NCBI GenBank assembly: GCA_964349125.1
Contig: CAYGFH010000002.1
Span: 174,484 to 238,483 of the forward strand
DNA length: 64,000 nucleotides
From: an uncultured Gammaproteobacteria bacterium
Lineage (GTDB): Bacteria > Patescibacteriota > Microgenomatia > UBA10105 > UBA927
Reading direction: 5' to 3'
Shown here: positions 6,001 to 30,000 of the stretch, piece by piece
Layout of the letters: each line of letters opens with the position of its first letter
How positions within the stretch are numbered: the first letter of the stretch is position 1
The notes under the pieces: model-generated
Databases searched by the model: none
What the model was told of the DNA's origin: nothing
Seen by the model: only the letters and a program-made list of their open reading frames with translations
Made by a program: the position numbers and the translations under genes

Positions 6001-9000
6001 AATTTATCTTTATTGGGTGTAAATAGGATTCTCCATTTGTTTTTGCCGAGCGGAGGGTTGGATCAAAGACGACTGGCTCAAGGAATCTGTGTTTCTCTGC
6101 CACGTTTGCCGAAAAGAAATTGACCATATTCCCTAGAAGCTTTACGGATTGATTTTGGGTAATTATGCCAACAGCATTCGCTGATTGCATTGCGCTTTCT
6201 GCCAATAATTGAACACCATCTGCATACGATAATCCGTTCGGAATTTTATCCCGCTTCGGCAGTTGTTTATAAAATTCCAAGAAGGCATCTGCAGGAGAAA
6301 CACCCTTAGCAAGCGCACGAGTGATCAGTAATTCCCCAAACTGGCTTTGCTCCACCAGCTCAAAGTGTGCTGCATACTCTTTGGATACCATTGCAAGCAC
6401 TTCTTCCTTTGCCTGAGCGTATGACAATTCCGGATACTGCTTCATGAGAAGCGAAATCATAAATCCGGTCGCCATGCCTTCGTTCCATGCCTCGTTCATT
6501 ATCGGCCCCAGAAACCTCACCATGTCATGCCCTGCTTCATGTGCAGCCAACAGAAATTGTATGCGCTCAATATCTTTTAGATTTGCGCTCGCGCGAATGA
6601 CGTAGAGTCCCAGCCGCTCATCATAAAATGCCATCACGTTCTTTTGCTTCGGATAAAACAGTTCAAATTGTGCATCAGAATACACGACTGTGTTGTAGTG
6701 AATAGGATCTTTCTCTGCGAGTGGAAGCGGTAATTTGAGGTTGTTTAGAAGTGTTCGTATAGTTTCTACAATGCCAAGCACACGTGCACGGTTGAGTCTG
6801 TCCGGGTGAGCGTCATCAGGAGTCTGCTGCGATTCATACCATGCTTCTATCGCCTCTTTGCTTACGTCTGATAACTCTACTCCAGAGTCCTTGAGTGAGA
6901 GCGGATATCCCGCTGGATCTTTGATGTGTAAGGCTACATACCCTTTTGCCAGGCCGTTGTTTTGCCAAAACGGCTTTGTATAAAACTGTTTTAGTACTGC
7001 ATCCTGCCCGTCTTTTTGCTCCAATTGTGCTACCTTGAGCAGTGACCGTGTTACTGATTTTTTTGCTGCTGGCGTAATTGTCATGCGCATATCTGCAACA
7101 ACATCAGATGCTACTGCCGCCGGTGCTCTCATAATTTGCTTTGTGGCACGTGATGACAATAGCGCGGGCTCATCATGAATTCCCATGGATGCGAGGATCG
7201 CTTTACTCACTAAATGCGCAGGATCTATCGGGGGATTTACTTCATCCTTCAGGTATTCTGCAACTTCGTCAAATTCAGTTGCGGCTGACTTAAACGCTTC
7301 GGGTAATTCCGTACACCCAAGCACCACCTGTACATCCATTTCCTTCAATTCCTTCACCAGTGCCAACACTTCTTTATGCATTTCGTGCTTGCTGTTTATC
7401 GTATAGCCTATCTGATCGCGAATCTCATTTGGGACAAATGCATTGCCGACAGACACTTTATCCATCCATATGATTTTTTGCACACGGCTCATGACATTCT
7501 GCGGCAATGTATCTTTCTTTTTTTGCCTGTATGTCGTAAGGCCGTGTTTCTGTGACATGGTATTCATAAATACATCGGTTCCCAATATAATCACATCACT
7601 ATTATGTTTTGCGAAATTCACAATCTGATTGATGGTTAGGTAAAAGAGTGAATCACCTTCCCCCCACCGAATAGCCTTAAGTGCCACATCATGAAGCAAG
7701 CTGATAGTGTTACACGCGACAGAGAATTGACACCCGTACTGCTTGGCAAACAGGCGTAATTTTCCGTACAGTTGTGAGAGCCCGAGCCGAGCGTTAGTGT
7801 TGAGCATATCTGCTATCACAGTAGGCTTCATGCCTACCGCCGTCATAAGTTTTGCGACCCAATTTGGGATAATGCGCTGTGCTGCCCCAAAGTAAATGAG
7901 CGTCGCATTAATCCTCGGATCCAGCTCATCGGTAAAGGCAAATCCTGATCCGATATCTGGCGCCGCAATCCATGTCCGACCCGCAAGATTCGGGAACGGG
8001 AACGTTTCAATATCATTCACCAACTGCCAACTGCCATCTGCTTTTTTTGTATATACTGTGTCTCTATCCGCATTATTGTCTACTCTGATCCTGATGCGTG
8101 CACCCGGCTGTATGTGATGAAGCGGTAGCGCCTGATCCTCCAGAGGATACCGGATCCCTTTTTTCGGGAAAAAGAGAGCAAATTCTCTCGTAGTTGTTTC
8201 ATTTGGCAATACACCCTCCAACCACATAAACGCATCATGTTTCGCTCGCATCAAGCTGTCGGCAACCAAAGGCAACACTTGCATGCCAGGTCTGTAGGCT
8301 GTGAGTTTGGTGCGAACTTTAGAGAGGAACGCAGATGTATCCGCAGTACGAAGATCATATGTTGCGCCGACTGCATCCGCACCATCTCCATACAGCCTTG
8401 CCAACCGATTATATCCGCGTTTTTCGTCACCAAAATATTTCAACAGATACACATCCAAATCAGGCACGTTATTGTTGAGTTCTTTTTGCAATCCGGCGAG
8501 GTGGGCATCCGCACTGTTACTGCGTATCCTGTCCTGACTGGTGTACACCCATTTGGAGACAGTCGGAGCAAAATCATAGGCAACGCCGGGATGGAGGCGG
8601 AATGAATGCTTCTGATTATCCAATTTACTGGTATAGGTGTATGTATACGAAGAAAGGGCATCGGTAAATTTGCCTGCGAGGGCAAAGAATCCTTCCTGAG
8701 TAGTAGGTATTCTGGAGTTTTTTATCTGCGACAAGGTGACACCTATCGCTTCAGTTATGAGCTGATCCCCCAGTTCATGCCCTTCAGCATCCTGCAGAGC
8801 CTTGAGCTCTCCGGGAGAATCTATGGCTATCACATGAGCAGAGCCAGCCCTGCCGGGATAGGCAACATAGAGCTCTATCCCCCGTCTGAACGTAAGAATT
8901 TGTCCTGGTTGTATAGTGGCGAGCATCTGTTGGAATACCTCCATAGACCGGGTGGATATAATCGTCGGATCATTAGGACCATATCCAAGCTTCTTGACCT

Positions 9001-12000
9001 GTGCATCCACTACTGGATCGGTAAACGCAGCTACCATAATCCGTTTTGAAACCTGCTGATTATCCTGATTCGGATCCTTTGAAATTCTATCTGTGACAAA
9101 TTCACTGAGCATTTGTGCTATTCCCGGATATCCTTTTTTCAAAAGATCCTGAATTTGTAGGTCGGTAACCTTTGGCAACAAGTCACCGTTTGCATCGCGA
9201 ATTTCCGCATAAAATTTGGATGTAGACCAGGCAATTTTGATAGGCAATTTGGCAAGGCCTCCGGTTTTTGTGGCATACACCCACTCAAGTCCGTCCTGCA
9301 TGAATACATCTTTACCCGAAGCGGGATCAGTAGAATTAAATAGAGCCGTATGAATGCGTTTTTCCATTTCGACGCGTCTATCATCTGAGTGTTCTATCGC
9401 ATTGTTTAATTTTGTTATCTCAGATTGCAGCGTTCTGATCCGGATTTCCAATTCCAAAATTCTTTTGGTAGCTTCATTACTGTCTCCAGACGGTTGATCA
9501 GAAAGCTGTGATACTAACTCCCTCATTTGAGCTATGGTTTTTTCCAATATATCCTTCGATTGTTCACGCTGCATAACCATATCCATATCCTCAGAAAGCT
9601 CGATAATCAGATATTCATCTCCGCTTATTCCGGCGCGGACAATCACACACCGACCACAAATACCCTCTAACCGCTTCGATAACGCACCGATACCCACTCG
9701 AAGCAACATATCTCCCCCAACCATACCCAGAGGTGTTTCATTTGATTCACGAAGACTGGCAAAATCTACACGCCCAACCACTTTTCCTTTGAGTAAATCA
9801 AGAAAAATCTGTTGAGTAAAACTTGTGTACACAGATTGAGAATCTGCATATTCAGATGCTATTTTTTTAACATCCTGTAGAATAGGAATTCCGTTTGCAT
9901 ACTTTTCCCATATTGGCTCAACATCAATAAACTGTGCATGCATCGGATCGGTAATCAACTGCTTGCGCAGCATTTTCTCCTGCGTCGTCGGCAATATAAT
10001 ACCCCGTGATCTCAGTGTGCTTATAAACATGTCCGCTAGTCGCAAAGCTCCTTCTGTATTTTTTGTCTGTTCGTATGCGTTGGGTAGCTCAAAAAGCGCC
10101 GTATCCAGCTGAGAGAGCTCTGAAATCTGTTCCTCATTCACAAAAAGGGAGACCAATTTGTCCGATACCGTGTGATTTTTTGCCATGGCCCGCTTCATAG
10201 CGGTCAAAAATCCCTTCGGATACGATGTTCGCAACTTTTCATCATCTAATGCTCCCAAAAACATTTCACCGTTTTTGTAATCAAAAAAGTCATCTAAAGT
10301 ATCAAATTCGTCTATGAAATTATTTATGACAAACGGCTGATCAAGCTTTGTTTTTCTGTCTTCAAGTGAGTGGAATTTCTCGTAAAGATACGCAAGAACC
10401 GGATTGCGTTTAGGATTCGGTGAGTCCTCGGTATAGTGCGGATATGTGCCAATAACCGCGGCATTGATAGCAGCAGCAAGGCTGGTAATCGCCGTATTTC
10501 TTCCGGTAATATTTGCGGAAAACAACTCCTGTGATGAAGTGGATGCCTGATCACTGTTGAGTGTAGCTGAAAGCTCCTCCTGTGTCAGCTCTACTATAAG
10601 TTTCCACAGCGTGTCTGATATCTGAACTCCTGGAAACAGGTGCTCGCGCAGGTAGGGAGCATTATGAAGAACAGCCAGATTAAAAAGCTCAAGGGATCGA
10701 GCGGCCGCATGTTCGTATCGGGGAGTAGCAAATCTTCTCACTCCTCCATTAATGGATTCTGCATAGATACCGGTATCCCTATACAGAATTGTAAGCTTTG
10801 TGGATGCATATACGGCCTTTTTCAGATCTTCTTTTGGTAGTGTGTTACTGGCCGCATCACTGGTCAAAAACGAAACCTGCGAATAGACATCCGGATTATT
10901 CACCTGTTCAAGCAGTTCAAGCATTTTTTGTGTGCGGGTCACTATTTTCCCTTTTTGTGCAGCTATAACACCATGGAATCCCCCGCGCAGTGACTGAAAC
11001 ACATTTTGCAGTAGCTTCCCACGCTGGGATGTATCGTGCAGTAGTTGTTTAATAGTGTAGAAGTATGATCGCGTAATAAATGTTTCCGGATCTAATAACT
11101 CATCGTTATGTACAGATTCTGTAAGTGTTCCATCCTGTTCAAGAATGGGTTTGAGCGATGCAACCTTAGCTGTTTTGTTTGCATAAAACTTTGCATATCC
11201 GCTTTCCAATGCCTTTGATATCGGGTGTTCTGTCACATCCTGTGAAGTGGGTGCTTTCAATTGTCCTGATACAACCAAATCCGTCCCCTTTATCATCATA
11301 GTCGGTGTGATGTCTATATTTATCAGTGTTTTTGCGGATAACACCGGAGCAATCAGAATTGTATCTTCGGGTTTTCTGATAGTTGGCATGGTACCCCATG
11401 CATTCGGAACCAGTGGGCCCGATACATATGAGTATTTCTGATCCGGAGTATCTGCATGCCACCAGGTACCTGTGTCGGGTATATCGGCTGAGACAACCTG
11501 TTCATTCACTGTTCCGTCAGAATCTATTGTATGAATCGGATACTTGGATTTGTAGTTAATCACGCAGGTCTCCCCTGCCTCGCCCTGGGCAAAGACGGAG
11601 GGGAGGAATAGGGATGATAGTTTGCCACAATTATCTGTCAAGGCAATATCCTTCTGTACTTGTGGTTTTGGTCGAATTACCACACCCGAAATCTCCCTAA
11701 CTCCAGGCTTTCTAACACCCCCACCTATTTCCACATACGGATCTCCGAATACGGATTCCGGTATATCTACAGAGATATCTTGTTCTCGTATGTCAAACTG
11801 GTCAGAAATGCCTATATCCTCACTTTGCAGTAGTTTCATGAAATTATCTTTGCTCGTATTCGCGCTTAATAGGGCGGCATTACTGACGGACATATTCATA
11901 GGGATAGTTGGGAATTCTTTCTGTAAAGCCTGAAGCTTTTTAATAACCACTAATGTGTTCGCTGCCAAAACATCCGGTGTTTTCGTTTCGTATAACGTAT

Positions 12001-15000
12001 CAAGGACAAAAGATAATCCTCGCTTTCCTGACGCATCGGTGGTAGGAATCATCCATACGACTTGATCGGCCAAACTCCCAATATTCTGGTGACTCCCTTT
12101 TGTGTATATATACATTCGGAACGGCTCTGCAAACGTCAGATTCGTATCGTTATTTGCTCCGGGCTGTAATACAGCGAGACAGGCACGAATATTCTCTATG
12201 ATGCTGTCCATATCGTGTGTCATGACACTTGTGAGCAACTGTTTTCCGGTTTTTGCGTTTGTTAGTGCACGTATTTGATCAAGTTGTACTTGCAAATTTG
12301 GATTATCAGTTTTGATGTCACGCATTTTCTGAGCTACTGCGTATAATTGTTGTAAGATATTCTCTATCTTTACCACTTGTTTTTGGATGTTTATCAGATA
12401 CTCCGAGACAATACGTCGTTCTTCATCTGTCAAACTCGCACCTTGCTTGACCAATAATTGTTGCAGGTCGGCAATATCTTCTGAGAGAGCAAGTGCACCT
12501 GAACCGGTATGAAACTCCTGACCGATCTTTGAAAAAATTAACGAAACCCTGTCAGATGGAGCCAGTAAGTCTCTCAGAACTGTAAGTTCGTTTGAAGCCT
12601 GAAGAGCATCTGCCTGGCGGATCACAGTAACAGCTGTGGAGATTGTTTTCGCTGCTTTTTGCAATTGTAAAATTGTGGCCGGATCATCGAGCGCTTCTGG
12701 AGTATCAAGCACTCCTTCTAATGCACTACGCACGGCACGTTCACTCTCTGAGAATTCTACGTTTCTATTATTTGCGGTCTGATACATTTTCGAAAGCGTT
12801 GCGTTAAGCGGTATTCCCGGATCTTTTCGTAGAAGCGCAAATAGTTGCGATATGAGAACTGGAATGTGGGATGGTATCTTTTCATTCTTGTCTGGGATCG
12901 GGACATACAGATCAGGGTCGGCCAGTTTTTCAAAGTTCGATAAGAAATTTGCTAGCTCCTGATCCTTGGTTAATGTCGATCCTAACATAGTTGATTGCTC
13001 ATCCCGAGTTAGCATATCCATAAAATGATTTTTATCGTCGAGACTTAGCTCATATTCTTCAACTATAGACTGAAATATATCTTTTCGATTTTTTAGCAAT
13101 GAGGAAACGATTTGAGCTTTTTCTTCGGTCAAATACTCTGTGGGGTCTATAGAATCGCCATTGATAAGGCTATTCCACTTACCGTGCAATTGAACTGCAA
13201 GAAAATACCCGAGAAGAGCCTCTTTATCAGCATCACGGGCAGCAATATTTGAATAAAATATTGAAGTATTTATGATACTTTTTACCATCGCTTCTGATAA
13301 TTGGTTTGGAAGTGTTTTTATCCCAAATGTACTGCGGAAAAGCGCGGTCAAATCACGACGGTTTTTTTCGTTAAAGGCCGATATGACAGTTTCACTCTTA
13401 TCATTTTGCAGTGATCCTTTGAAAGCGGTAAGGTCCGCCAACAGCGTATCAGTTGATTCGTTTGCAGCTACCACTATTCCGAGCTCACGTTTTGTCGACA
13501 GCACAACTTTTGCTTTATACAAAGTATAGCCGCTTCGGATAAATTCCTTCACCTGGCTTTCAGTGGCACTTTCTAATGATTCTACAAGACGTATAAAAAT
13601 GCGTACATCCGTATTTATAATATCTATAGATGTCTCATAGAACAACGCGATTTCATCATCGCTCCAGTTTTCGGCTCGAAAACGGTTTTCCAATGCTTTT
13701 AATCGATTCATAAACACTTCTTTATCCGCCTTTTGCAGAGATGATGTATACAGTTGCATTATGAGCGATCTGGAAAAGCTCAGAAGTGAATTTGCTTTCG
13801 TCAGATACCCTGCTCCTCCGTACAACTTGCTCATGTACATACTTTGCACAAGCTGTTTCGGTACTATGTCAGATTTTCCGGAATTTATATATGACATCCA
13901 GTCGTTTCGCAGCTGTGTCCATATGAGATCCTTTGCTTCCCTTCCGGAGAAAATATCGTCAAGTTTTTGCTTATCTGCTTCACTAAAGCCAATTATATTC
14001 AGAGCATTTGCCCCATGTGTTTGCACAAATGCATAAAAAAGCTGCAGTACATTGTTCGTATCAATTTGTACTTCCCGATCCGACATCAATTGTGACTTTA
14101 CCGTCTGAAGCTGAGGAAGCACAGTGTCTATGGCATATGCGTTGAGCACATCCGTAAACATCGCAGTATCCTCTATATGGCCTAATCGTATACTCTCAGC
14201 TGTAATTTCTTCACTAAATCTCCGCATCTTCTCAACAACTCCGGAATTGCCATATTCAAGTTCTCTGGCGATTATCTTAAGAAGCTCAGGAGTGGCAGTT
14301 AAAATAGGTACTCTCTCGGTCTCTTCGGACGGAAATAGGAGGTTTAATTCAGCATTTGATAATCGTTGCAGGGCATTAAACACATCGCCCACTCTGTTTC
14401 CGATTGCAAACCATTGTTTCATATATCTGGCTAACAGCTTTTCTAATACCGGGTGTCTTTCCAAAAGGGACATATACGATTTCGCAATTTTTTCTGTGGT
14501 CGCACCCGATCGTCGCCATTCGGAAACGTGTTTCAGGCTTTCAAGATATATTTGGGCATGTGTGGTCGTGTTGCTTAGATAAAAAATATCTGAAATTGAC
14601 ACCCCTTCACGACTCCACTGGGGTATCCAACGCGTAAGCAGAGCTTCACGCAGGAACCGCTCCGGAATATTCGCAATAAGCTTTGCAAGGCTACCAATTT
14701 TGTAAGAGTCTTCCGCATCTGCTATACGTAAACTTGCCCGGATTATTGCAGCAAATTCATGCGGTGTATTATTGAACTTCATGTATGCGTCGGTTGGCTT
14801 TAGCTTATGATTTATATATGCTTTTGACCGCATATACGCCATAAAAATTTCCAGATCTTCATCGCTTATATTTGCCCATATTTCTGGTGTAGTTTTACTG
14901 TTTATTAGCGCTGCAACACCAAATTCTGCTCCCAAAATATTCAACTCACTCCTTCGTTTTTCAACCCGACTTGCTCGAGCAGCTTGAATCTGTTTTTGTA

Positions 15001-18000
15001 CGTCCTCAAATGATTCTGCGGATATATCGTTGGTTGTTATAACTCGTTGTACGATATCGTAGGGCTGCTGAGCCAACCACTGAATTGCAGCGCGCTGAGC
15101 TGAAGAAGGAAGTGAGGAAATTCTAGGAAGAATATCAGCCATATTCATAGCGTCCAGAAAAAATGAAACCTGATCGGAAGGATTTGGTATACCATCCACA
15201 ACTGATAATAGTTGCTTTGTTTGCTGCGGGTATTCACGCACGAAATTCAGTATGGTATAAATTCGTTCAATTTTTTCCTTAGATTCTATCCATCGGGTTA
15301 TATACGGCGTTATAGACTGAACCACTTCTGGGCTCATCGTCTCAAAGTGGCTTAACAACTCATTGAGATCCATAAACGAACGTATTGTTGTACGCCACTT
15401 GGTAATCTCAGTACCGAGTAGTTGTGCTACCGATGGGTTATGAATTAATCGGGTTAATAATTCTTCAACAATTCCTACTGTCCAACCCTTTTTTAACCAT
15501 TCAGTCACAAGTGGGGCGGTAGGATACATTTCAGGCATTCTCGCGTAGATTCGCAGTAAACGAGAGAGATCTGCGGTATTTACGCCATCAACTTCTATCC
15601 ACTGGTCTACAAATGAAGCTAACTCGGCAGCACGAGTTGGATTCAGTACGAATGCCTGGAATAACGAGTCATACAAATATCCATATTTCCTCCAAGCGCT
15701 CGACTTCGTTGTAAGAAAGTTGAGTAGCTCAGGGTTATCTTTGACATTCACCATTACCTCAGGCAACACATCAGCCGGATTTCCTGAATCACTGTATTCT
15801 TTAAGATATGGCAAAATCTGATCCTGCTGCTTTTGAGTTAACCCGATAAACTCTGGCGCTACTGCTGTTACAACAGGCACCGAGATACCACTTGAAAGCA
15901 GTTTATTTACCGTGTGTACATATTGTGTCGATTCGGCCTGATTATCTAAGAATGCCACCAGCTGAAACACATCAAAAATATTTTTTACATTGGATTTCCA
16001 GATGGTAAATACTTCGTCATAAATCATTGCTGAAACAGCGGGAGGAAGCGCATCTATTTTGCGTATGACTTTGGCACTTGCTATCGGATCGAATAGACTT
16101 GTACGATATGCCCATGCCCAAATTTCAAACCTACGAAATAACCGTACTATCCCTCTAAATGTATTTCTCGACTGTGGCGCGACAGCGATATTTGATGCTT
16201 GTGCTTGGGTTTGTCCATCATTCTCAGGATTATCTGCCACCCATTTCGCTATCGCTTGCTGTTCGTCATCGGTATTTATTGATAGTACCTGCGTATCAAT
16301 TGGATATAGTGTTCCATTCTCATCCCATGCCCAATTCCTGCTGTATGATGCTTCGTTCGGATCTAACAGCGCCGACAATTTTGTAGAAGATGTATCTTCA
16401 GGATTATACTCGGGATCAATTTTCTTAATCCACCTGGTAAAATGAGTATCTCCCGTTGATATATCCAGACTTATTCCGTTTGCATCAATGGTGCCAAGAC
16501 TCAGTGTTTCTCTTCCATCTTTTCCGTTTTTATCTAAATGCTCGCTGACTGACTCCAGTGCGCGTGTGACAGCAAAAATCTGATACGCACCGCTTTTGGT
16601 TTTATAAAATAACCACTGTGTATTTGGATAGACTATCCCCTTTTGTGTCAGATATCGCAGTACCCTCAAACTATTTACTGCCTGTTGTTGAGATTGAACT
16701 AGATGGTCAGGTTTTACATATAAATATGTGGTGCTCAGTGTCGATTTATATGTACCACCTCTACCAGGCTGTTCCAACGTATATCCCTGTTGTTTTTTAA
16801 ATTCCTCAAATTGTTCTTCTGTGAGAGTTTCATTTCTGATAGATGAGGTTATTTTTTGTTCGATTGTAGACAATCGATCTTCCCCATCGATCTTTATAGT
16901 GTCTGGAATATCCTGCGCTCGAATAGTTTTCAGTAGCCCGCCGCCAAAAAATGTGACGGATGATGACGGGAGAAGTTCCAAGTGATTTACTGTTTGTGTA
17001 TCAATTGTGTACCACTTGAATATGTTCCATCCTAGGAAATATCTACCAGATTTTGGAATCGTTACCTTTTCCCCACTTTGTAGTGTCAATGGCAAGCCAA
17101 AATAGATTAGTTTGCATGGATCTCCCGCTGCAAACACAGATGGGAATAGGCGGAAAAATCCAGCCTGTGGACCACAGTCTGTATCAGCAGTTGCTTGGGC
17201 ATTGATGACTCGTAGATTTCCTCCATCTTTTTCTACTTCATTCAGATATTGCGTTAATGGTAACACTTGCGCAGTCGGATCATATCCGGATAACTTAGCA
17301 ATCCTTCTTAGTCTGTTTGAGATAGCAAATGCGAAGAAATGATCCCGTATAAACGCCCCGCTTTCTACAGATGCCTCCCGTGTGGCATCCCGTATATCAG
17401 CATTTTCAATTTCAACTCCACTTCGACGAGTGAACCATAATTTTGGCTCTCTCAGATATTCGTCCAATACACCATGTTTTATATACACTTCGATTATTGT
17501 TGAGCCAAATCTTCTATACAGCTCTTTTTCTGACATAGAATAGGTAGCACCCTGAAATCGCATCGAATCCAGCTCTTTTTGTGCCTCACTAAACCTGCCA
17601 TTCCATTCTGCCGCAAATGCAGTGAAAATGTTCTCATAATACTGGATTCTTTCGGTCCGCACGTTCTCTTTCAATGATGATAACGACTGCTCTTTTTGCA
17701 GTTCCGTTATGATATCTATCGGCTTTTTATCAGCACCATTTATCGAAATACTTACGTTCTCCGGGAATGATTCAAATAACGAGATTATACGCGTTGCGGT
17801 TACGTTTACTATTGGTTTCCCATCTACCCAAAAATAATCCGGGAGGATATCACCTGTCGTTCGTATGTACTCAAAGTACGTATGTATACTCTCCGGAGAG
17901 GCAAAATCCATATCCCCCGATTGCAGTGAATACGTAATATTTTTTTTAGTATCATAAATCTGATTCGTTTTTCCAACTATATCAGTATCGCCATTTAGTG

Positions 18001-21000
18001 AGAGCGTGATTCCATCAGGGGATAAATACCGCGCTGCATGCCTCCGGAGTGAGAAATACCAATAATTTAACTTACTGTTACCCAACCGATACAACGTTCG
18101 AATTGCATTCGGACTATCTATTGCAACACGCACAAACGACATGCCGTCTTGTTTTAGAGCTGATAATGCGGCGATCCACCCTTCGGTTGCAGGCACGTTT
18201 TCTGAGGGGATAAAATAGACACCCACCATTCCCCGTTCTTCATTCCAATTTCGGATGGTTCCTATGATATGCCCCAGGATGACACCGTTTTTCCGTTTAA
18301 CCTCAAACACTGTTTTTCCATTTGATTGTTCTTTCTTCAAAAACTGTTCTACTTCAGATTCAAACCCACCATCGGTATCACTTGCGTATCGGCGAAGAGT
18401 CGCATCTTGTATAAGTTGTATTCGATTTGTCCCCATTGGTTGGAATTGCCCGTGAATTCTGTCATATAAATCTCCCAACACCCCAGAGAGCGCATCATTC
18501 ACGCGTGCAAGATCTTTTGAATCATAAGGAATAGCACGTTCCCGCAATGTTTCTATATAATAGGAAATAAAATCCTCTCTTGAAATTTCGGCATACAGTA
18601 CCGCTGGGGCATCTTCCTGAATTTGAGACAGTATATCTTTCAAGATGGTTAATGATTCTTTCCAGTATATTGAATCAACAACGTTGAGTACTCCCCTCAA
18701 ATGATCTTTGTTCGTAACAAATACAGATACCGCTTCAAAAATATCCTGAATATCAAACGTACTTAACGCTTCCTCAATTTGCGTGCCGTTACCCTCTAGT
18801 TCTTTAATCACCGCCTGTATTCGTTCAGATTGTTTTATCCACTCCAGAATGATCGGATGCTCGTCACTGTCACGTAACAGTTTATTTACATCCACAGTCA
18901 CACCATTTTTTGCCAGCATTGTACGAATCTGAGGCAGGGCTATGACCATCATTTGCTTTTTTAAATCCAGAGGGAATCGTTCGTTCATAAATAAACGTAC
19001 TATGCGAGTCAGCACTTCAGAACTTAATAATCTTCCTACGGTTGCTTCATTTGAATATTCAAGTGATTTTGCCGACATATATATATCCACTATCGATTCC
19101 CACGATACCGACTGTTTTCCTTGTGCGAAATCATTCATTTGTTCAAATCCGGACAATAATATTTTGTCCGACAACGAAGGGCTTCCTTTAGAAAATTCTT
19201 GTACAAAACGGGTGTATTGATCCATAATATTGACTTTGTCCTGATCAGACATATGTTGACCTGGTCCAAATGCAGATGCAGCAATCGCAAACTGTTCTCG
19301 CAATCGTTGAATACGATTATTCGGTCGTGTAGAAAATGTTGCTACCGCCGGATTAACTGATCGAGTCTCTTTATCAATGGCAATCGCGTATGAATTCGGT
19401 AAATCAAGTGTTTGTGCTATAACATGGTGCGACTGTTCGTGCGCGCTGATCTCGGATGTGTTTGCATCTGCCGTATACCCGTACATGTCAGGGTTGTCAT
19501 TCATATCCTCGAACACTGCAATTGCAGCCGCATCGGCCTCAAAAACAAATAGCTGATCAGATGAACGAAAAGAGATATATTTTGAGGCAATACTTCCCTC
19601 CGGCAACAACGCCATGATCCGTTCAGCATCCAGGGAATTCTTTTTATTTCGTACAAATTTTAGCAGTGTATGTATTTCCGATATGAACGCTTTTTTATCT
19701 TGTTCGAACTGTGCATACTGCTGTGTCGCATGATCACGATGCAACCAGGAAAAAGAATCAAATGCTATACCATATGCCTTCATGAGCCATGTGTTTAACG
19801 CAATCTGTTTATCCAATGTAACTTCTTTGAGCGCGTCTTTTAGTTCCACAGCAGCGAGCAATATCTGTTTTTTCTCATCAACCGAAGCTGTCTTATAATC
19901 CACAGATGCCTGGATGAACCGATGGAGCGATCGAGTCCACTGGACATCTTGGGGCTCACCAAACCATTGAGATGGATCTATGAGCATGGAGGGAGTAATA
20001 TTGGGCTCATAAGGTTGATCTGAGATCAGTGACCTGCTTATCTCACCTGCCAACACATGCCCTTCCAGAGCCAGAGAAACGTTTGTTTTCATAAATGCAG
20101 AGAGCTCCAACGCATATGCAGATCCCTGAACAGCATATCCGGACAAGAAATCACTTGCAGTCAAAATTTGTCCTAGCGATAAATATCGCTGAACCCTATT
20201 GTCCATCGGAATATTCTCTGCAAGTATCATCGATGCGATTTGCATTCTTCGGGATGCAAATGATGAAATGGCATTGACTCGACTATTCAACATATGCACG
20301 ACACTCCCATCTCTCATTTCCAATATTTCAAATATATCTAACGCATCGAGCTCATCTTTGCCTACTATATCTTGCAAAATCTGATACAGTGTTTTATTTT
20401 CCCTTTTACCCTGATATACAGACAGAATCGTGTCAACATCAGCAAGGACTGATAGAAATTGTTGCCCTGAATGCGGTGATTGCTTCAGCTGCTCAAGGAC
20501 ACGCATGGTGTACACAACGGGGGCGCTTTCCCGATAATTACTCACATGTTTTAACGCCAGCAAGAGGAGATCTATTCGTTTACTCGAGTCTATAGAACTC
20601 GATACCGCAGGCTCTGGCAGAGAATATTGAGAGGAGTCTGCTTCAATACTAAGTAGTAATCCTGAGTTCATCAGCACAGATTCCAATTCAAATAGAGCCT
20701 GTACGCTTTTGGATAACGCATCAAATCGATCCGAACGGTATTGGTCCTCATTTTGAATCTCAATGCTTCTCAGACGCTCTAATGCACCAAGCAATTGATC
20801 AGAAACCGCATTTTTCTGCTTTGTATATACCACTTTCCATTGACCCGGAGCGATTTTGGATATCGCAGGGACAGCAAATCCTTTTTTCGAAGCCTCCTTA
20901 TATGCGCTTTGAACCCGATTCATGTATTCATCTGCTTGCAACATACCGTCTTTCGTTGCTTTCACGAGCCAAACACTATCATCATCTTCCTTAAATCGCT

Positions 21001-24000
21001 CTGAAGTTATAAACGATACTGACGGTGGTGTTATCGTTTCCGTTACAATTGCCTGACTCGCAGTAACAGCAGGAAGCTGGGTGATTCGCTGTACCTGTTT
21101 TTCATAAATAGTTGGAACATCTACAATAAATGGTTGAATTTGACGTCCCTTTGCGTCTTTCGCTCCTTTTGGAGGAAACACTTTGACGTATTGCGTGGAC
21201 GGAATATTCTTGATTTGTTTCCCTACAGAACGGGTTCCTTCTTTGACACTTTTGAGTGATTCGAATGTCCCTATCATAAATGTGGATCCAGGCATTATTT
21301 GTGATGGCGTCGACGGAACTGGCTTTCCCTCAGGACCAGCCTTAACCGTCTCCACAGGATCCGCACCAACGTTCAGTACTATACATGGCGCTCCCGCCGC
21401 AAACACCTGAGGTAGGAAACGGAATGAGTCTTGTGGACCACAGTCTGTTTCTACAGCTGTTTTTCCATCATTGGCCTGTACGGATTCCTCGCGCGCAAGC
21501 AAGGCTTTTTGTGCCTGCACGTGTGCCACATCGTAGGACAAATCCTTCAGAATATCTGCTTGCCCAGATGCGCGGATGGCATCAATCGCAGCTGTGTTCA
21601 ATTTTGCAATACTGTAGGGAAACGCCCGATCATCTGTTCGACGTCCGCGACGCACTTTCGCTCCATCAGCTCGTTGCTTCATTTCACCACTCGCAAATAG
21701 TTTTTGCTGGTAATAACGATCCCCTGCTGTGATAAATGGATCTGCAAGAACTATATTTTCGACGACCAATACCTTTTTACCATCCACCGTCACGTTTGGA
21801 ATAGGATCACCTTCCAAAATGATATTGGGTTTATAGATATCATTGTGCGGAAGTCCACGCTTTTGCAGTGCTAAGACCCTCTTATATGCCTGTTCTTCAA
21901 CATCAGGAGGGATGAGGTAGTAGTAATCGCTGTCAGCAAAATATTCACCTAACGCTCCACCAACTATTGCTTTTTGCAGTATTCCTACCGGCTTCCCTTT
22001 CCAGTAGACGTATCCAACCACTTCGTAATAGAGCAATTTCCCATCAAGTGTTTCTCTGGCTTTTGATATAAACGCGGCTGTATCCTGCGGCAGATTTGGG
22101 TTCTTGCTGAGTATATCCGGATCGAAAAACTTTACTGCCAATGCAGTTGGTGATGGCCCATTCTCCCAAGCAAAGACGGCACCCGTTGCTCCCGAACCGA
22201 ATACTCGTAAACTGGATAGCGGCGGCACCGTGAAATTCGCAACTCCCATGCCACCTGTTTGAAATGCTTGTTCTTTCTCCATTTCTTGCAACCGTGATAT
22301 GACTTTTGTTTTTTTCGCATCTGAAAACGCTTTCCCAAGAGGCTCTTCTGTCTCCGGTTCATCCGGGTACTCAGTTATTGGATCTTCGGTCGGCGCGTTT
22401 TCTGTTGAAACAGCTTGTGGTGTCGGAGCGAGAGATTGCGGGTTTAGTTTCTTGTCAGTTTTTTTCAGATACTGTTCTATCACAGTAAGCATTTTTTCGT
22501 AGCCTTTGCCGGTGAGTAGCGTAACGTAATTGTCAAACCCTTTGGTTCTAAAATTTACTCCCGGATCATACAGTGGATACTTCTTTTTAAATTCATTAAG
22601 GGAAATGAGCTTTCCATTTCGTCCCGAGTGGGCTATGTCATAAAAAGTCTGGAATGCCTCACGAATATTTCCGTGGTTATGTAGTATCCAATTCTCTACT
22701 CCAATCCCTCCAAGCCCTCCATCTCCAAAATCATCAAATTTCTTATATGCATGACCCTCTTTTAGCAGTTTCTTCGCAAGCAATATATTTGCAATCACCT
22801 CTGCACGTTTAGATTCCTCAAGTGAATCTAACCTGCTTATCACAGCGTTATTGGACGCGAACAAGGCCTGATCTTCACGTGTTGTTATACCAATATCCAG
22901 ATCTATCGTGCGATCTCCAACTTTAACACTCTTCAGGCGTACTTGGAGCTGTTCGTCTCCCCCACCGGCTGCCACTTCCGATTCATGAGGAAACGCAGCT
23001 TTGAGGGCGGTGGCTATCTGACTTGCACGTTCAAAATCTTTTGCATTTACGCTTAGAGAGAAGTCAAAATCATAATCACCTATGACATTGGTATGCCGTC
23101 CTGAAGAGCCTATATTTGCAAGCTGTGCGAGGTGCACTTGTGTATCTTTTTGCTCTACCGCCATACCAATGCCCATGTCATTCAATGTCTTTTGGATAAC
23201 AGTTCGCACATCGGCATCAAGCTTCGACACAATGTCACTATCCGCATTTATGTTTGGGATGATTTCCTGGATATCCGCTGCGATAGGGTCAGACGGGGGT
23301 ATGAGCATTGCCTGAAACTTCCCGCCTGCAAATTCCTGAACACCTTCAAATGCTTCGCGTCGTACATCATACATCTCGGGTGTATATAATACGGTTCCAT
23401 CTTCATCTACAACCGGCACGTAATACCCATTTTTTGCGATAGACATGTAGAGGGTTTCCATAAATGGCTCATTTGCTCGTATAGTTTTTTTCGCTATGAT
23501 GGCATCAACTTCGCTCATCGGAAGCGCTGACCGTACACCCACATGATGCTCATTTATAGGCCCATTTATCAGGCCGTATTTTCGTATACTCTCAGTTTCA
23601 TTTGCTGCTCCATTCTCAAGATAAAACTGATCTCTATTTCTGACTAGCAGAATAAGTTCTCCATACTCGTTTGCTATTGAATTTTTCAGTTTGCCTCTGA
23701 ATGATTTTGATGATTCCGATGGTAAAATCTGGGAAAAGTCTGTATCCAGAGGGGTTGAATCAGTACCACTATCCCCCCCCATGAGCTCTCGAGCCCTAAG
23801 ACCACCCTGCAGAAGGTTTTCTATTGAAAATATAGTAATGGCGTTTTCTTTACTAATCGGGAACACTCCTTTGAGCAAATCTCCCGCAGACATAGAGATT
23901 TTTCCGAACCCGGCGCGTACTGCAATTCTATTTCGCTCATCTGCTGTTTTTCGAACCGATGACAGCTCGGTTTGCAACTCGTCCAGAGAACCATACCCAG

Positions 24001-27000
24001 TTTGCAGTAAAAACATCTGTGAAATTCTTCCGACTAATGTCTGGCCCTCGGATACCCGATAATCTGCGTAGAGACGGCGTATCTGTTCACGGACATACGA
24101 GTCCTCGGAGAGTCTTTTTACTTCCATCTGCTTCTTGGTACCTCTTCCAAGCAGAGAGGTACGATAGAGTACATCACCGCGTACTAAAAATAATTCCAGA
24201 TTTGACCGCTGCTGGGGGTTTAGTATTTCACCCTTCATAAACCTATCCGCCAAATCTGAGCCAGTACGCAAATGAGTAATATATTGATCCAATTCAAAGT
24301 TTCCGGAACGTACGGTAGACCGAAGTAAATCACGATAGATTATCTGTCGTTTGGCCAGTGGCGAGTTTGCGTTCTTTAACACTGGACTTATATTCTCGGA
24401 CTCTTTGAACATTTTCGAGAGGACGTCATCGGTATACAATATTTCAAAAACTCGGAATAATTTTGCAAAATACGGGATATTATTTTCTTCAAATATACTT
24501 CGAATCTTCTCAAAATCCGCTCTCGGGTCTTTCGCGTCTTTAAGGAGGTCCAATATCTGCAGCTGAAGCCTACGGAGCTCTTTGGAAGGACTATTCCCGA
24601 TTTGATCAAACAGATCCATATATACCCTATACTCACCTATCAGGGTTTTTGAAATCTTTTCTCCTTTGGCAATCCGGTCAAAGAAAATGCGTTGAATCTT
24701 TGCGGATTTGACTTTGGTTTGGTTAAACAGTTCCCAAAATTCCCGTTCATCAGCGCTCAGCTGTATTGACGTATCACTCGCAAGCAGTTTGCCATATGTA
24801 GCGATTATATTTCGATCCTCACGGAACATATTTTCGCGCTCATCGAAATTCATATCAGCCGCTTTTTTTCGCAGATATTTATGCACATAGCCAATCGTGT
24901 CAGGATTAGCGTGTCTGAATGTCATCATATACTGGTTAAATTCAATGCCTTTTAAAAGATCTCCAAATGATTGAGTCATCGCAGCAATCGCCTCTATTGT
25001 AGGAATGTCATACAGATCTACTGGCAGCGTTACTAGTTCCAAACTAGATTTATCTATCTTCCCTTTATATGTCTGAATAACCTTATAGAGGGACTGGAGA
25101 GCCGCTGGATCCCATCTGGCCAACTTGTTCAGAAGATCTAATGCCCACGTACCATTACTTCTAAGGAGTTTTAAAAGAAATGAACTTCGAATTGGGGAAT
25201 TAACTACAAACCTATCGATAAGGCTTGCTGAGATTTTCGTCCTTACGTTTGATTCACTCAGCAAGAGAACAGCGTTTGGACTGTACGTTATACTGCCACC
25301 GATTAGATTTAGTATGCGCAGTAAATTTCCAACCTCAGTAAATGTTGGATTAAGTATATTTTCTATAGCAGAAATTCGGGAAATTTTGTTACCGTCGCCT
25401 GCCTTATACATAAAATTAACGGCTTGAATTTTTTGAGGTGAAGCTGTTTCCAGCTGTGTAAGTATTCCCGATACGTCGACACTTTGGTAATCTTTTGTTA
25501 TTTGATCCTTAAGCTTTATACGGAGCGACTCGATTCGCAGTTTTTCTTTTTCCGGGGCAGGCAGAGACAGCTGACGCACCCATGATTGAAGTTTCCCGAC
25601 TACGGTTTTATTTGGCATTTCACCCGTCATACCTGTTTTTTGCAGCATCCACCCAATTACGCTACACACTTTTCCTTGTTTGTCTGCCGCGTAGACGGTT
25701 ACCAATGGTATTCTTGCCTGTTCTTCACAGCCTTCTGTCTGCCCATCTATCCATTCCTGCGCAGACTCTTCTATAGGTGTGCCCAGTAGAGATCCGGTAT
25801 GAGCAACCACTACGCCATTAAACTGAAATTCTCCCTTAATCCTGCCATAATTTCCGGGAACAAATTCGATATAGTGGTCACCTAAAGCCGAATCTCGAAT
25901 CGTGACGCTAATCTCAGACATATCAGAGACCGTAACATCATTATCGTTGGCAGCTTTCAATGAAGTCTCTAGAGATTCTTTGCTCGTTTTTGCCGTTGTC
26001 AGCGTAGACTCAGGAACAATGATCGATAATTTTATTCCTGGAATGCTTTTTTTTATCTCCGTGACTTTTTTGATCAGTACCTGAACATGGTTTTCCAATA
26101 CATCACTTGTTACTGAACCATACGGCCTATCCAATATAAATGCGATACCTTTTGTGCCATCCGGATATGTGACCGGCTCGAGATACACCAATTGGTCTGT
26201 GATGCTTCCACGGAGCTGTTTCCTCACCTTGCTGTATATAAAGAACATATTCCCGTCCCCCATCGTCAGATCCGTATCATTGTTGATACCCGATCCGCAG
26301 GAACTGTTCATAGCGAGACACTCTCGCATGTTTTCGGCAATATCATTTATATTGTTGGTAAATGTGCTCGTAAAAATTCTGGATGTAGATCCGCTCTCAA
26401 ATATATCGTCCATATAGGAAAGTATGCGAATGATATTTCCAAAACGTGCTTGTATTGCCTGTTGCTCGTCTTCTTTTTCTGATGGTTTTAATATGGATAG
26501 CGAGAGATATTTATCGTGAAGCTTGTTGTAAATATCCAAAAGTTTGACCGTCTGGGCTCTGGCCTCAGAGAGGTATGCATTTGCTGCGGCAAGATCATCT
26601 TCACCAATCTTACCCGAATTTTTGTCCAATATATCTTGCAGGCGCTCCAGATCTTCTGTGAGTGCATATGCTCCTGAGTCACTCTTAAATTCTTCCCCCA
26701 ATTTCGAAAAGATGCTGACCACCTGCTGAGAGGGTATAAGCAATCCCCGAAGCCGCCCTATTTCATCCGAAACATTGAGCTCATCCACATACTGGCTCAT
26801 GCTTGCGATAGTAATGAGTGGCTTCATATTTACCTGGAATACTTTGGTAAGATTCTGGACTGTATTCTCCAAACCCGATTCCTGCAAAATCCGCTCAATC
26901 TCCCTCAGAATTGCTTCACGCTGCTGTAGTTCGCCATCTGCAAACACCATTGCTGATGTTCCCTTAAGCTTCATTTGGATTGCGTGGGTAATCACCTTTG

Positions 27001-30000
27001 TCACTAGAGCGGTGGGATATCGATTTAACAGGCTTATAAGCAACTTATCCTGCTTACTTGCATAGGCCTCAGGATCCTGCAAATTCACAAGGGATCCGAT
27101 GATGTCTGTGAGCTTATAATCCACTGTCAGAACATTCCCTAACCGTTGTTCTGAAGCATCTTGTTGAAGAATTTCCATTACAGTTGCAAATTCTTTCGCA
27201 GACAATCCCGCATCTTCAGGAGTCACTGCAGGCATTTTTTGCCTGTTTTGCAGCGCTTCATCAACGTTCTTTGCCTTTTCTGCCACTAAATACTCTTTGG
27301 GATCGATATATTGCCCTTTACGAAACTCTAGCCATTTCCCGTTAATCATGAGGGCGAGATAATATCCTATGAGCTCCTGGTTCTGATCCTCCGACAACAC
27401 TGTCTTTGACTCTGAGTGTAGAAATGCCAAATACAATGACATATTCACGATTGACCGTGTCTGCTCCTCATTAAATACTTCGGGAGCCTTGATAATACCG
27501 AACTTATCTTTAAACAATGATTGAATGTCCGATAATATCTTCTTCCTATGAGTTGAGAACAAATCAGGTGTTGATTTATAGTTTGATTGAAACTCGCGTA
27601 TATCTTTTCTTATATTTAACAGTGCCGTCGTATTTGGAGTTTGTTCACCGGATCTGTTATATGTTTCGCTCAGCGCCAATTTTGCTTTATATAATGGGTA
27701 AATTTCTTTTGCAAAACGTTTAAAATCCTTTGGTGACATCGTCTGAATGAGAGAGAGAAAATCTCCAAATAGACTCGGTGCCGCCCGTAACACATCCTTA
27801 GAAATCGTATAAAATTCTGCCCGTTCATCTCCGCTCCATTTTTCCTTGGTCATTCTCTCTTCCACTGAGGCCACCCCCTGAAACAGCGCATTTATAGTGA
27901 CAGGAAGCGTTGTGGGAGAATGAACGGCATCATTAAATGCTCCTATAAACTGGCTTAGCGCCTCTATTTGACTAAAAAATGCTACGCCACCGGCCGCATC
28001 TATGAGATGAGGCAAAAATACCAGCTCAAATGGTGTTCCTGAGGTTTCGATTCCAGCGTGAAGATACTCGCTCCACGTTGTCAGTAATTTCTCAATAACA
28101 AAATCACGAAGGTCTTTTTGATTAGACAGGGCATCAACGAACTTAAAATCTTCTTCAGTGAACTCATACCCCTCTGCTTCTTCCACATCGTGCATTGCAG
28201 CCACAGCGGTAAAGAGTGCCAACCAGTTGTCATCTGTTACGGTTTGAAATTGTGGTTTCGCGAGCTGCTCTTTCAGATGCAGCAATTGCATTTTTGCTAT
28301 CATATCTACCTTATTCTGAAATGCTATTTCATCATTTGAGAAATTTTCGTTTAAGTATGTGGCTAATCGCTCACCCATCACCCTACTCGTCACTGGATCG
28401 GGCGATTGAAAATTAAACAAATAAGATCGCCAAAATTGAAAGTCGTCATCTGCCTGAAACAGCTTTGTTCCCATCAACTGCACGAACTCCCGAAGGTCAG
28501 GATTATTCCGATAACTCTTCCACAAAAACTGCATACGGGGAGTTGCATCTGCAAGCATTTCATCGGTAAAGTTAAATGTTTCAAGGATAGAGGGAGCAAG
28601 CTTAATAAATTCTGATTCTTTACTCTCTATAACAATTGTGGCGAAAATCGCATGATCGATATTCTCCGTTTTTTTGAGCTGTTCAGTGGCCGTAGTGATA
28701 TGAGTATAAATAAATTCTTGAATCCATGACCCTCTAAAAGACTCTGCTTGCAGCGCTGCTTTCATGGTCTCTTTATCGTCTTGTGTCATCTGTGGAAAAA
28801 CTCCCAAATAATTCGAGAGCATTTTCCATGTATCCGGAGGAATTGGCGGATAATTCCCTTGATCATCAGTCATGTCCAAGATAAAAAACTTGACCCTCTC
28901 AGATGCGCCTACTATATCAAAACGATCATTAAGCGCGCGCATGATGTTAGTAAGATCTCCGTCATGAAATTTAATCCCACTGTTCAGAAGTGATTTTTCG
29001 AGTGCTACAAGGGGAATAAGCTTTGCGATGTTCTCGTTTAATAACGTATCGTCTTTTATAACAGCGATGATTTTCGCCAAAGCGCTCATGGCACCTTTTC
29101 GCTGTAAAAGCCTAAGGGTATTTTCTTCTCCCAATGATCTGAATAATCCGCCGTAATATACTTTTGCCCCTACAATAGATCTGACAAATTCAGGAAATTC
29201 TTCAAGTATTGCATTGGAAAGTAATGCTGTATTGGGGCCGATAGTAGTTTTATCAAATCCCGCTTCTTTCACGAAGGCGAGCATCTGTTGCAGCTCATAT
29301 ATTTCTTTCCCGCCACTTTGGACAAAGGCCTCAACAATGTTCAGTATTTTGTCCGAATTCGGGATGACAAAAATTTCTTTCCAGTGTATAGGGTTATCAT
29401 TAATCTGATTCAACAACGCGACGGTTTTTTTTGTATCTCCCTCATCCCATACAAACGGCATATATCCATATTCAAATCCCACTCGGTATGAGATGAGTAA
29501 GTCAGCTATTTTTTTGTTTGTCATACCAGGGATGCTCTGAAGGATTCGGATAGCATCTTTCAAATTTTTGATAGCATTGGGTTTTTCTGATAGATCAGCT
29601 ATATATTTCCGAAATAAGCTCGAACCCACTATAAAGTTCAAATTATCCATACTTTTTGTCGCATCTATAAATCCAATGACGGTTTGGATAACTTTTGCAT
29701 CCGTTTCGTCTGATCCGAACGACATGATCATATGCTCCAAAGTACTCACATCAACAGTGTCATATGCGGCATATGCTGTAAGAATTTTTTCCAGATTAGA
29801 TTGACCCTGGCTGGATTTGCTGTAAATAAAGAGTAGATTTTGGATATATGATGTGTCTGTTTTCCCATTGAGTGATTCACCAGACAATTGAAGCGTATTC
29901 ATGAGCCCAAGTAATGTTGACATTCTGGTAAATGATTCTCTTACTGAAGTGGTATCCAACGGTACGCTATTTGATAATTTACTGATAATAATTTGAATGA

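Follow-up and report, generated by a model that had tools for sequence, protein, structure and literature searches.

We found that a segment of gene B, one of two giant genes in a 64-kb window of contig CAYGFH010000002.1, resembles the N-terminal lobe (N-lobe) and catalytic loop of protein kinases. ("The window" means the whole 64,000-nucleotide stretch that was analyzed.) We put the probability at roughly 0.6 that residues B3110-3275 (~21730-22225; hereafter, the kinase-like region) are a very divergent, atypical module of the protein kinase-like (PKL) fold, and an orphan at the level of sequence. As read from the sequence, the likeness spans the kinase N-lobe and catalytic loop; the remainder, including the substrate-binding lobe, appears atypical. 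Residues are numbered from the start of the stop-free stretch of gene B, which is on the minus strand, such that the first base of residue Bn is 31552-3(n-1).

Kinase-like motifs and profile comparisons

The following elements of gene B were compared with those of eukaryotic protein kinases (ePKs), using a profile of ePK sequences and the program hhalign.

21809..22213, minus strand: kinase-like core (B3114-3248), from strand beta1 to the catalytic loop, collinear with positions 3-133 of the ePK profile
22175..22198, minus strand: Gly-rich loop GSGATGAV (GxGxxGxV; B3119-3126), in register with the ePK Gly loop in the hhalign alignment
22130..22138, minus strand: AVK (B3139-3141), with K3141 as the candidate beta3 ATP-binding Lys, aligned with VAiK of the profile
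21938..21967, minus strand: IVGGALGEYF (B3196-3205), a GGxL segment like that of the hinge and alphaD, aligned with E~~~~g~L~~~l of the profile and with EYVAGGEMFSHL of PKA
21824..21847, minus strand: HNDIYKPN (B3236-3243), with D3238 as the candidate base and N3243 as a candidate Mg ligand, aligned with HRDlKp~N of the profile
21734..21745, minus strand: ADPF (B3270-3273), with D3271 as a possible equivalent of the DFG Asp, after a long predicted beta-hairpin; recognized by inspection only

Three of these motifs had been pointed out in a preliminary description of the window, and all three are in frame in gene B. HNDIYKPN is exactly where it had been placed. VFGSGATGAVF, given as 22173-22202, is at 22172-22204 (B3117-3127), and LAVKFF, given as 22122-22140, is at 22124-22141 (B3138-3143). 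That is, the motif coordinates were off by no more than 3 bases. The spacing had been called canonical, with about 17 amino acids from the loop to the Lys and about 100 to the catalytic loop, and we found K3141 to be 17 residues past G3124, and D3238 a further 97 past K3141. The preliminary description had found no obvious DFG equivalent and had queried ADPF. ADPF is indeed the sole candidate, with 28 residues from N3243 to D3271, and it was not confidently aligned. The GGxL hinge segment was absent from that description; it is an extra kinase-like element that was found by hhalign.

We estimated how often such a set of motifs would occur by chance. In the two giant proteins, which total 21,200 residues, HxDxxxxN was present once and GxGxxG three times. 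The ordered pattern G.G..G-(8-30)-A.K-(60-140)-H.D....N was found a mean of 0.001 times per shuffle of these 21,200 residues (2,000 shuffles) and a looser version of the pattern a mean of 0.0095 times, estimates that are post hoc in that many other signatures could have been looked for. Because the ordered trio is expected only ~0.001 times, pure chance is unlikely to account for it. Two combinations typical of ePKs are both present: GxGxxGxV with a beta3 Lys 15-20 residues further on (GSGATGAV and K3141), and a catalytic Asp with an Mg-binding Asn, in the variant form HNDIYKPN, with both residues in register.

We compared the region to ePKs by profile-profile alignment. The profile was built from 17 kinase domains (PKA, CDK2, PknB, PrkC, ERK2, p38, Src, Abl, EGFR, IRK, GSK3, CK1, CK2, Aurora A, Akt1, CaMKII, and Chk1) whose sequences were entered by hand, so that any errors in them could only weaken it. 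As a check, a subset of three sequences (PknB, PKA, and CDK2) was used as the profile, and 7,999 of 8,000 candidates had E<=0.001, the best with E 2e-168. Alignment of B3100-3339 to the 17-kinase profile by hhalign gave a probability of 71.7%, a score of 37.9, and 128 collinear columns, with B3114-3248 aligned to profile positions 3-133. GxGxxGxV, AVK, the GG hinge, an alphaE-like helix, and HxD....N were all in register.

This score was higher than those of several kinds of control. Among 174 native windows of 240 amino acids over both giant proteins, the top two overlapped the kinase-like region (36.9 and 25.1) and the next highest score was 22.1. Shuffles of the query (300 in all) scored 13.9 +/- 2.5, with a maximum of 25.8. 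When the three minimal motifs were held fixed and the remaining sequence was shuffled within segments, scores were 16.0 +/- 3.5 and none of the 400 shuffles reached the native score. When wide motif blocks (38 residues) were held fixed and the rest was shuffled, scores rose to 27.0 +/- 2.7 and 3/400 reached it. The motifs alone are thus not sufficient for the score: nearly all of the wide-block shuffles fall short of the native sequence, and therefore the sequence between the motifs adds ~11 score units (p ~0.01). The alignment did not depend on the choice of kinases in the profile: jackknife resampling (9 of the 17 sequences, 30 times) and leave-one-out tests always returned the same ~125-column alignment, with scores of 26-40.

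We extended the comparison to 83 related loci (~380,000 residues), which supplied 2,108 native windows. Just two of these windows scored above the kinase-like region, and both have the kinase fold: an ePK in locus L029 (160.6) and a Pfam-confirmed ABC1 domain in locus L032 (50.7). Windows with scores of 31-36 were a mixture of a Pfam-confirmed APH gene product (L056), a Pfam-silent open reading frame (ORF) with kinase motifs (L058), and false positives. The false positives were an amidohydrolase (34.3), a low-complexity N-terminus (32.8), and a ClpP-like S49 peptidase (31), none with catalytic residues in register. That is, the profile-profile similarity of the kinase-like region to the PKL fold exceeds matched controls, by a modest margin.

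The kinases that the region resembles best appear to be the Hanks-type ePKs (PF00069; PknB, PrkC, and PKA), as suggested by its sequence motifs. It shares with them GxGxxGxV, AVK at +17, the GGxL hinge, and an alphaE-like helix leading into H-x-D-x-x-x-x-N, followed by hydrophobic strands and D-x-F. It differs from them in having HND for HRD, Tyr at D+2, and Lys at D+3, and in having DPF for DFG, 28 residues past the Asn as opposed to ~13 in PKA. It also differs in having no Pfam match, no similarity to the APE motif, alphaF, or the C-terminal lobe (C-lobe), and no homologues.

The region was also compared to atypical members of the PKL fold (APH, PF01636; ABC1/UbiB, PF03109; HipA, PF07804; and RIO, Bud32, and Kdo). 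It shares with these a Brenner-type HxDxxxxN, compactness, and a poorly conserved C-terminal part, whereas its Gly loop and AVK resemble those of ePKs and not those of APH. With an APH profile (four sequences, entered by hand), hhalign aligned the catalytic loop only (score 20, probability 1%), and with a single Bud32 sequence the score was at background (14.6). No Pfam match to RIO, CotH, or Kdo was found at E<=10, these families having been examined through Pfam only. We considered an APH-like reading in which ADPF is followed by GDRYY, similar to the APH(3') motif GxADRYQD; the APH profile did not support it. The preliminary description had proposed an atypical kinase or a pseudokinase. The kinase-like character of that proposal is supported in part, by the hhalign likeness in the N-lobe and catalytic loop; the particular families are not, with APH aligned over the catalytic loop only and no Pfam match. 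Given that no kinase C-lobe can be recognized, an atypical kinase or a pseudokinase is as much as should be claimed.

If the region is a kinase-fold enzyme, its mechanism can be outlined from the established map of protein kinase motifs to functions. The phosphates of ATP would be clamped by the Gly loop (G3119-G3124), with K3141 binding the alpha and beta phosphates, D3238 serving as the catalytic base, and N3243 together with D3271 (of ADPF) holding Mg2+. The acceptor could be a protein Ser/Thr or a small molecule. Candidates for the Gly loop, K3141, D3238, N3243, and D3271 are all present, and for this reason we favor an active phosphotransferase over a dead pseudokinase.

Evidence against a kinase fold and alternative explanations

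Several results weigh against the interpretation of this region as a kinase-fold module. First, curated profile libraries are blind to it. Pfam and NCBIfam returned no family at all for the 271-amino acid region or for a 1,001-amino acid context, even at E<=10, so that there is no match to Pkinase (PF00069). A HMMER comparison to Pkinase, APH, RIO, CotH, and Kdo, which the preliminary description had proposed as a check, thus failed to find a kinase family by Pfam at that threshold, an outcome that the description had listed, together with a predicted structure lacking the bilobal fold, as refuting a kinase. PHROGs gave nothing at E<=1, and PADLOC at E<=1 gave nothing kinase-like and one weak cyclase match on the nucleotidyltransferase (NTase) part that lies next to the region (see below). 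A custom ePK hidden Markov model, run with filters off (--max), scored -2.3 bits and covered the Gly loop and AVK segment alone. Searches with phmmer of all PDB chains (using fragments of 276 and 143 amino acids) found no kinase and only chance-level matches: a CBS protein (E 0.012), PRPP synthetase (E ~0.1), a designed propeller, and ubiquitin.

Second, we found no homologues. No relative of the kinase-like region was found in a word-indexed search of 5.8 billion proteins (E<=10) or in tblastn-confirmed scans of GTDB genome contigs and JGI metagenome contigs, and the best tblastn match in the 83 related loci had E 0.63. A phmmer search of 1.84 billion representative proteins returned a lone match, a Gly/Thr-rich repeat protein that we judged spurious.

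Third, the hhalign signal is limited in size and extent. The score of 37.9 exceeds the best false positive (34.3) by a modest margin, and known remote PKL pairs scored higher in the same set-up (57 for APH vs ePK and 80 for Bud32 vs ePK). Masking the three motifs reduced the score to 13.6, which is background, indicating that the signal depends on the very motifs picked out in the preliminary description; masking the Gly-rich loop alone reduced it from 37.9 to 21.5. B3245-3460 alone scored 13.2 against the ePK profile, also background, and thus has no similarity to a kinase C-lobe. Neither an APE motif nor an alphaF Asp was detected, and correspondences of SGE and TDDRAF appeared just in a greedy, low-confidence alignment. 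A narrow PKA-only profile made from database sequences scored 18.7; this profile came from the 120 listed of the 7,999 kinase matches, nearly all of them PKA orthologues, and is uninformative.

Fourth, several residues deviate from those expected. A predicted helix, DTAAFISKARETL (B3157-3169), holds E3167, and the alphaC Glu of the profile was aligned to F3161 instead, leaving the alphaC Glu unaligned. There is Tyr rather than Lys at D+2 of the catalytic Asp, and the DFG candidate, DPF, is non-standard and follows the Asn by 28 residues instead of the usual ~12-20, in a part where the hhalign alignment is without confidence.

Fifth, prediction of the fold by AlphaFold failed. The predicted local distance difference test score (pLDDT) was 37.5 for the region as a single sequence and ~35 for the kinase-like part of a 591-amino acid construct that was supplied with an NTase alignment. 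The kinase-like part of both runs was modeled without homologues. With the low-confidence model, Foldseek returned nothing at E<=0.001; its matches, to GNATs, Pol lambda, and a few kinases, each had E>0.1 and amount to noise. Both low-pLDDT runs had the element order beta-beta-(beta)-alpha-beta-beta ... alpha-[HND]-beta-beta-[DPF]-helices. This order is compatible with the PKL fold, which is weak evidence.

Finally, there is no clear enrichment of kinase genes near the NTase module, where we counted ~4 genes or domains of the kinase fold in 1.35 Mb.

It is possible that the motifs co-occur by chance in ordinary sequence of a giant protein with a structural or surface role, sequence that evolves fast, is not enzymatic, and has no kinase fold. 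We consider this unlikely, and of the alternatives it survives best. The negative searches of curated profiles and PDB sequences are consistent with it, and a lack of homologues is what would be expected of unconstrained filler. So are the loss of similarity once the motifs are masked, the scores of 31-34 for non-kinase proteins in the same hhalign test, and the absence of kinase similarity in the C-terminal half. In addition, 64 kb was scanned for many signatures, a multiple-testing burden that exceeds what the shuffle test assumes. On the other hand, the triple motif is expected only 0.001-0.01 times per 21,200 residues, and shuffles that preserve the motifs reached the native score in 0/400 (minimal motifs) and 3/400 (wide blocks) trials. 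Moreover, true kinases apart, the region ranked at the top of the 174 and the 2,108 native windows, and its start directly follows a domain boundary and linker, as expected of a real module.

A second possibility is a Rossmann-type fold that binds NAD, FAD, or SAM, or a similar nucleotide-binding fold, with HNDIYKPN being coincidental. The sequence could be read this way by inspection, with G3119/G3121/G3124 preceded by a hydrophobic beta1 (LRVF) and followed by ALAVKFF-D3144: VFGSGATGAVFA, with D3144 coming 20 residues later, fits the beta-alpha-beta fingerprint, in which beta2 ends in an acidic residue after GxGxxG. The middle part also had weak PDB matches (the nucleotide-binding loop of PRPP synthetase, and CBS) that are not kinase-like. 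In contrast, the general Pfam and NCBIfam scans found no such family at E<=10 (no direct test with a Rossmann profile was made), both AlphaFold runs have a beta-hairpin at the Gly loop, at low confidence, rather than beta-loop-helix, and the would-be helix is interrupted by PSP (B3133-3135). The 128-column kinase alignment, by comparison, explains four elements at once (Gly loop, Lys, hinge, and HxD..N). We regard a Rossmann-type fold as very improbable.

Some enzymes with the kinase fold do other chemistry: SelO and SidJ AMPylate or glutamylate. A kinase fold in gene B with other chemistry or none (a pseudokinase or scaffold, such as a sensor of nucleotides or oligonucleotides coupled to the adjacent NTase, or an AMPylating or glutamylating enzyme) would fit the non-standard DPF, the lack of Lys at D+2, the unaligned alphaC Glu, the unrecognizable C-lobe, and the direct fusion to an OAS/CD-NTase-like enzyme, but the Gly loop, beta3 Lys, catalytic Asp, and Asn are all intact, which is more typical of active phosphotransferases, and we give this the smallest chance of the alternatives.

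The adjacent nucleotidyltransferase module and its relatives

The kinase-like region follows a conserved NTase module, from which it is separated by a linker.

22457..24700, minus strand: conserved module of ~750 amino acids (B2285-3032), the C-terminal half a Pol-beta-type NTase, as indicated by homologues P0001-P0005, AlphaFold, and Foldseek
23063..23110, minus strand: NTase catalytic motif GSSGRHTNVIGDYDFD (B2815-2830), with G, S, D, and D invariant in an alignment of six homologues
22889..22903, minus strand: DLDIG, the third carboxylate of the NTase, invariant in homologues
22340..22447, minus strand: Pro/Glu/Thr-rich linker (B3036-3071) from the NTase module to the kinase-like region, recognized from its sequence

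The C-terminal half of B2285-3032 is, as judged from its predicted structure, a Pol-beta NTase of the CCA-adding/OAS type. The module had no Pfam match. AlphaFold modeled this half with a pLDDT of 80-90 from a small alignment of homologues, and Foldseek matched it to the archaeal class I CCA-adding enzyme 1r89 (E 5.7e-07), OAS1 (E 1.8e-06), and CdnC (E 1.3e-05), with further matches to CdnD and TUTases. It contains the pattern hG[GS]x9-13Dh[DE]h and a third carboxylate, in addition to the similarity in fold. An NTase-like segment directly upstream of the kinase-like motifs had been mentioned in the preliminary description; it is now seen to be a conserved module with a Foldseek-supported NTase fold. 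The N-terminal half of the module has the conserved sequences GSVAKE.LG...SD.TPLDTD and HVG.R.

The NTase module was present, over exactly the span B2285-3032, in at least 75 loci, mainly in metagenome-assembled genomes (MAGs) of Patescibacteria (the candidate phyla radiation, CPR), with identity up to 48%. The window is therefore likely to come from a CPR-like bacterium. These included MAGs of Collierbacteria, Paceibacterota, Saccharibacteria, Magasanikbacteria, and Roizmanbacteria, and some labelled Bacilli, Clostridia, and Gammaproteobacteria. In many Patescibacteria MAGs, the module is a standalone protein of ~580-760 amino acids, and in ~65 of the 75 loci the protein and the module end within 20 residues of each other. 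In gene B, homology to the standalone family ends at B3032 and is followed by the linker, which had no regular structure in the 591-amino acid AlphaFold model, and then by the kinase-like region. Based on the end of homology and the linker, the kinase-like region sits where a separate, lineage-specific module is expected.

Some relatives of the NTase module also have sequences beyond it. In one (L048 5828-9064), the module is followed by an extension of 1,079 amino acids with an ADP-ribosyltransferase exotoxin domain (PF03496, E 1.4e-15), which suggests that the NTase-module family is a carrier of toxin-like enzymatic tails. The tails of two others (L038 and L039) are unannotated. An entire fetched locus (L032 1-22214, contig CAYHHA010000003.1) is taken up by a further giant ORF, with a length of at least 7,404 amino acids. 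In addition to the NTase module, this ORF shares the N-terminal region of gene B (B59-163), and it has an ABC1 atypical-kinase domain (PF03109, E 1.2e-11, residues ~1800-2000) and, right after the NTase module, a weak match to HipA_C (E 0.017, below threshold).

Directly downstream of an NTase-module gene in a Roizmanbacteria MAG is an ORF of 1,367 amino acids (L029 12271-16371) with a genuine kinase C-lobe containing HRD, DFG, and APE (residues ~744-954) and no obvious canonical N-lobe nearby. HNDIYKPN was the best local BLASTP match between the kinase-like region and this kinase. None of the tails or neighbours in L029, L032, L038, L039, and L048 was homologous to the kinase-like region. We tried the tails in L032, L038, L039, and L048 as relatives of the kinase-like region or of ePKs and rejected them (scores 10-17). 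At another locus, ~6 kb from an NTase-module gene, a Pfam-silent ORF of 302 amino acids (L058 18259-19164) scored 35 against the ePK profile by hhalign and has the kinase-like motifs LNDIHSSNFMV, IDLDS, and DLYCYSMLIL.

Gene B among giant multi-enzyme proteins

Two tandem giant reading frames on the minus strand make up nearly the entire window, and each is open at one edge of it. The frame of gene A is free of stops over 31950-63998 (minus strand), with at least 10,683 codons, and that of gene B is uninterrupted over 31552..2 (minus strand), with at least 10,517 codons, and exits at the low end of the window. In gene B, Pfam recognized a GNAT domain only, and in gene A it recognized an FHA domain; over the ~21,000 residues of both proteins, the count of Pfam domains was just three.

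2..31357, minus strand: gene B ORF, with a likely start Met at residue 66 of the stop-free stretch (MGSAGGIVSGFLISFAIATRL) and at least 10,452 amino acids inside the window
4661..4867, minus strand: GNAT acetyltransferase domain of gene B (residues ~8896-8964; PF00583, E 5.1e-07)
44886..45086, minus strand: FHA domain of gene A (PF00498, E 7.2e-14, 52.4 bits)

Kinase-like domains are well known in bacterial effectors and toxins. Polymorphic toxin systems have been described with both kinase and Pol-beta-fold NTase toxin domains and with giant proteins that contain multiple toxins (Zhang et al. 2012, PMC3482391). Like polymorphic and polyvalent toxins, gene B appears to combine unrelated enzymes (a Pol-beta NTase, a kinase-like region, and a GNAT), and relatives of its NTase module have variable C-terminal tails, including the ADP-ribosyltransferase exotoxin domain. 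Unlike in polymorphic toxins, none of the known elements for trafficking, secretion, processing, or immunity turned up here, and the kinase-like module is internal (residue ~3,200 of >10,500) rather than at the C-terminal tip. The preliminary description had likened the pairing of NTase and kinase to effector modules; the variable tails of the NTase relatives, and the ABC1 domain in the other giant protein with this module, lend this indirect support, but no secretion or immunity element was identified to go with it.

The two genes also resemble the giant genes of Omnitrophota 'Archaeovorins' in being tandem, encoding >10,000 amino acids each, and being mostly unannotatable, with scattered enzymatic domains (GNAT). 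They differ in that the one conserved module has its relatives in MAGs of Patescibacteria rather than Omnitrophota. The text of the paper on those giant genes does not mention NTase or protein kinase domains (West-Roberts et al. 2023, bioRxiv 10.1101/2023.11.21.568195).

Annotation is almost wholly lacking for the giant genes (>10,000 codons) of ultra-small bacteria. The kinase claim made here is modest and unproven; it is plausible, and, if real, concerns an orphan version of a familiar fold, carried by an unusual host protein. A real kinase-fold enzyme at this position would support the notion that such giant proteins are strings of enzymatic effector modules and not purely structural or adhesive fibres, and it would add a kinase family that is invisible to current profile libraries. 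HMMER libraries and AlphaFold are mute on orphan regions of this kind, and only the combination of motif logic with profile-profile comparisons and matched controls gives a graded answer.

Within the interpretation that we favor, the kinase-like region would be a discrete module that follows a Pro/Glu-rich linker and a CCA/OAS-type NTase in a multi-enzyme giant protein. By analogy to polymorphic toxins, we hypothesize that it could be one of several enzymatic 'warheads' of an effector-like protein. A bolder proposal, for which we see little chance, is that a new orphan family of kinase-fold enzymes is coupled to the adjacent NTase as a warhead of a giant effector directed at a host, with the FHA domain reading phosphorylation. 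For example, the kinase-like domain might sense, or be regulated by, a nucleotide or oligonucleotide product of the NTase, much as the pseudokinase domain of RNase L senses 2-5A, and an episymbiotic, Patescibacteria-like cell might deploy the giant effector on its host.

Other features of the window were as follows. The G+C content is 44%, and there are no tRNA genes in the window. Numerous ORFs of 60-400 amino acids on the plus strand, antisense to genes A and B, are probably spurious. An AT-rich gap separates the end of gene A from gene B (~400 nt to the limit of the stop-free stretch and ~590 nt to the likely start). The sequence after the likely start Met (B66), MGSAGGIVSGFLISFAIATRL, is a hydrophobic N-terminus. 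By eye, the canonical phosphothreonine-binding Arg and Ser of the FHA domain in gene A may be replaced (GS for GR, and DARH for SxxH), and this domain may be a non-canonical FHA, as far as its sequence indicates; solid as its Pfam match is, we place no weight on it as a partner of the kinase-like region. Genes A and B encode a single stretch in common, of ~230 amino acids, located at B8203-8409 (~6325-6945) and A8249-8479 (~38560-39250), with 28% identity (E 6e-13).

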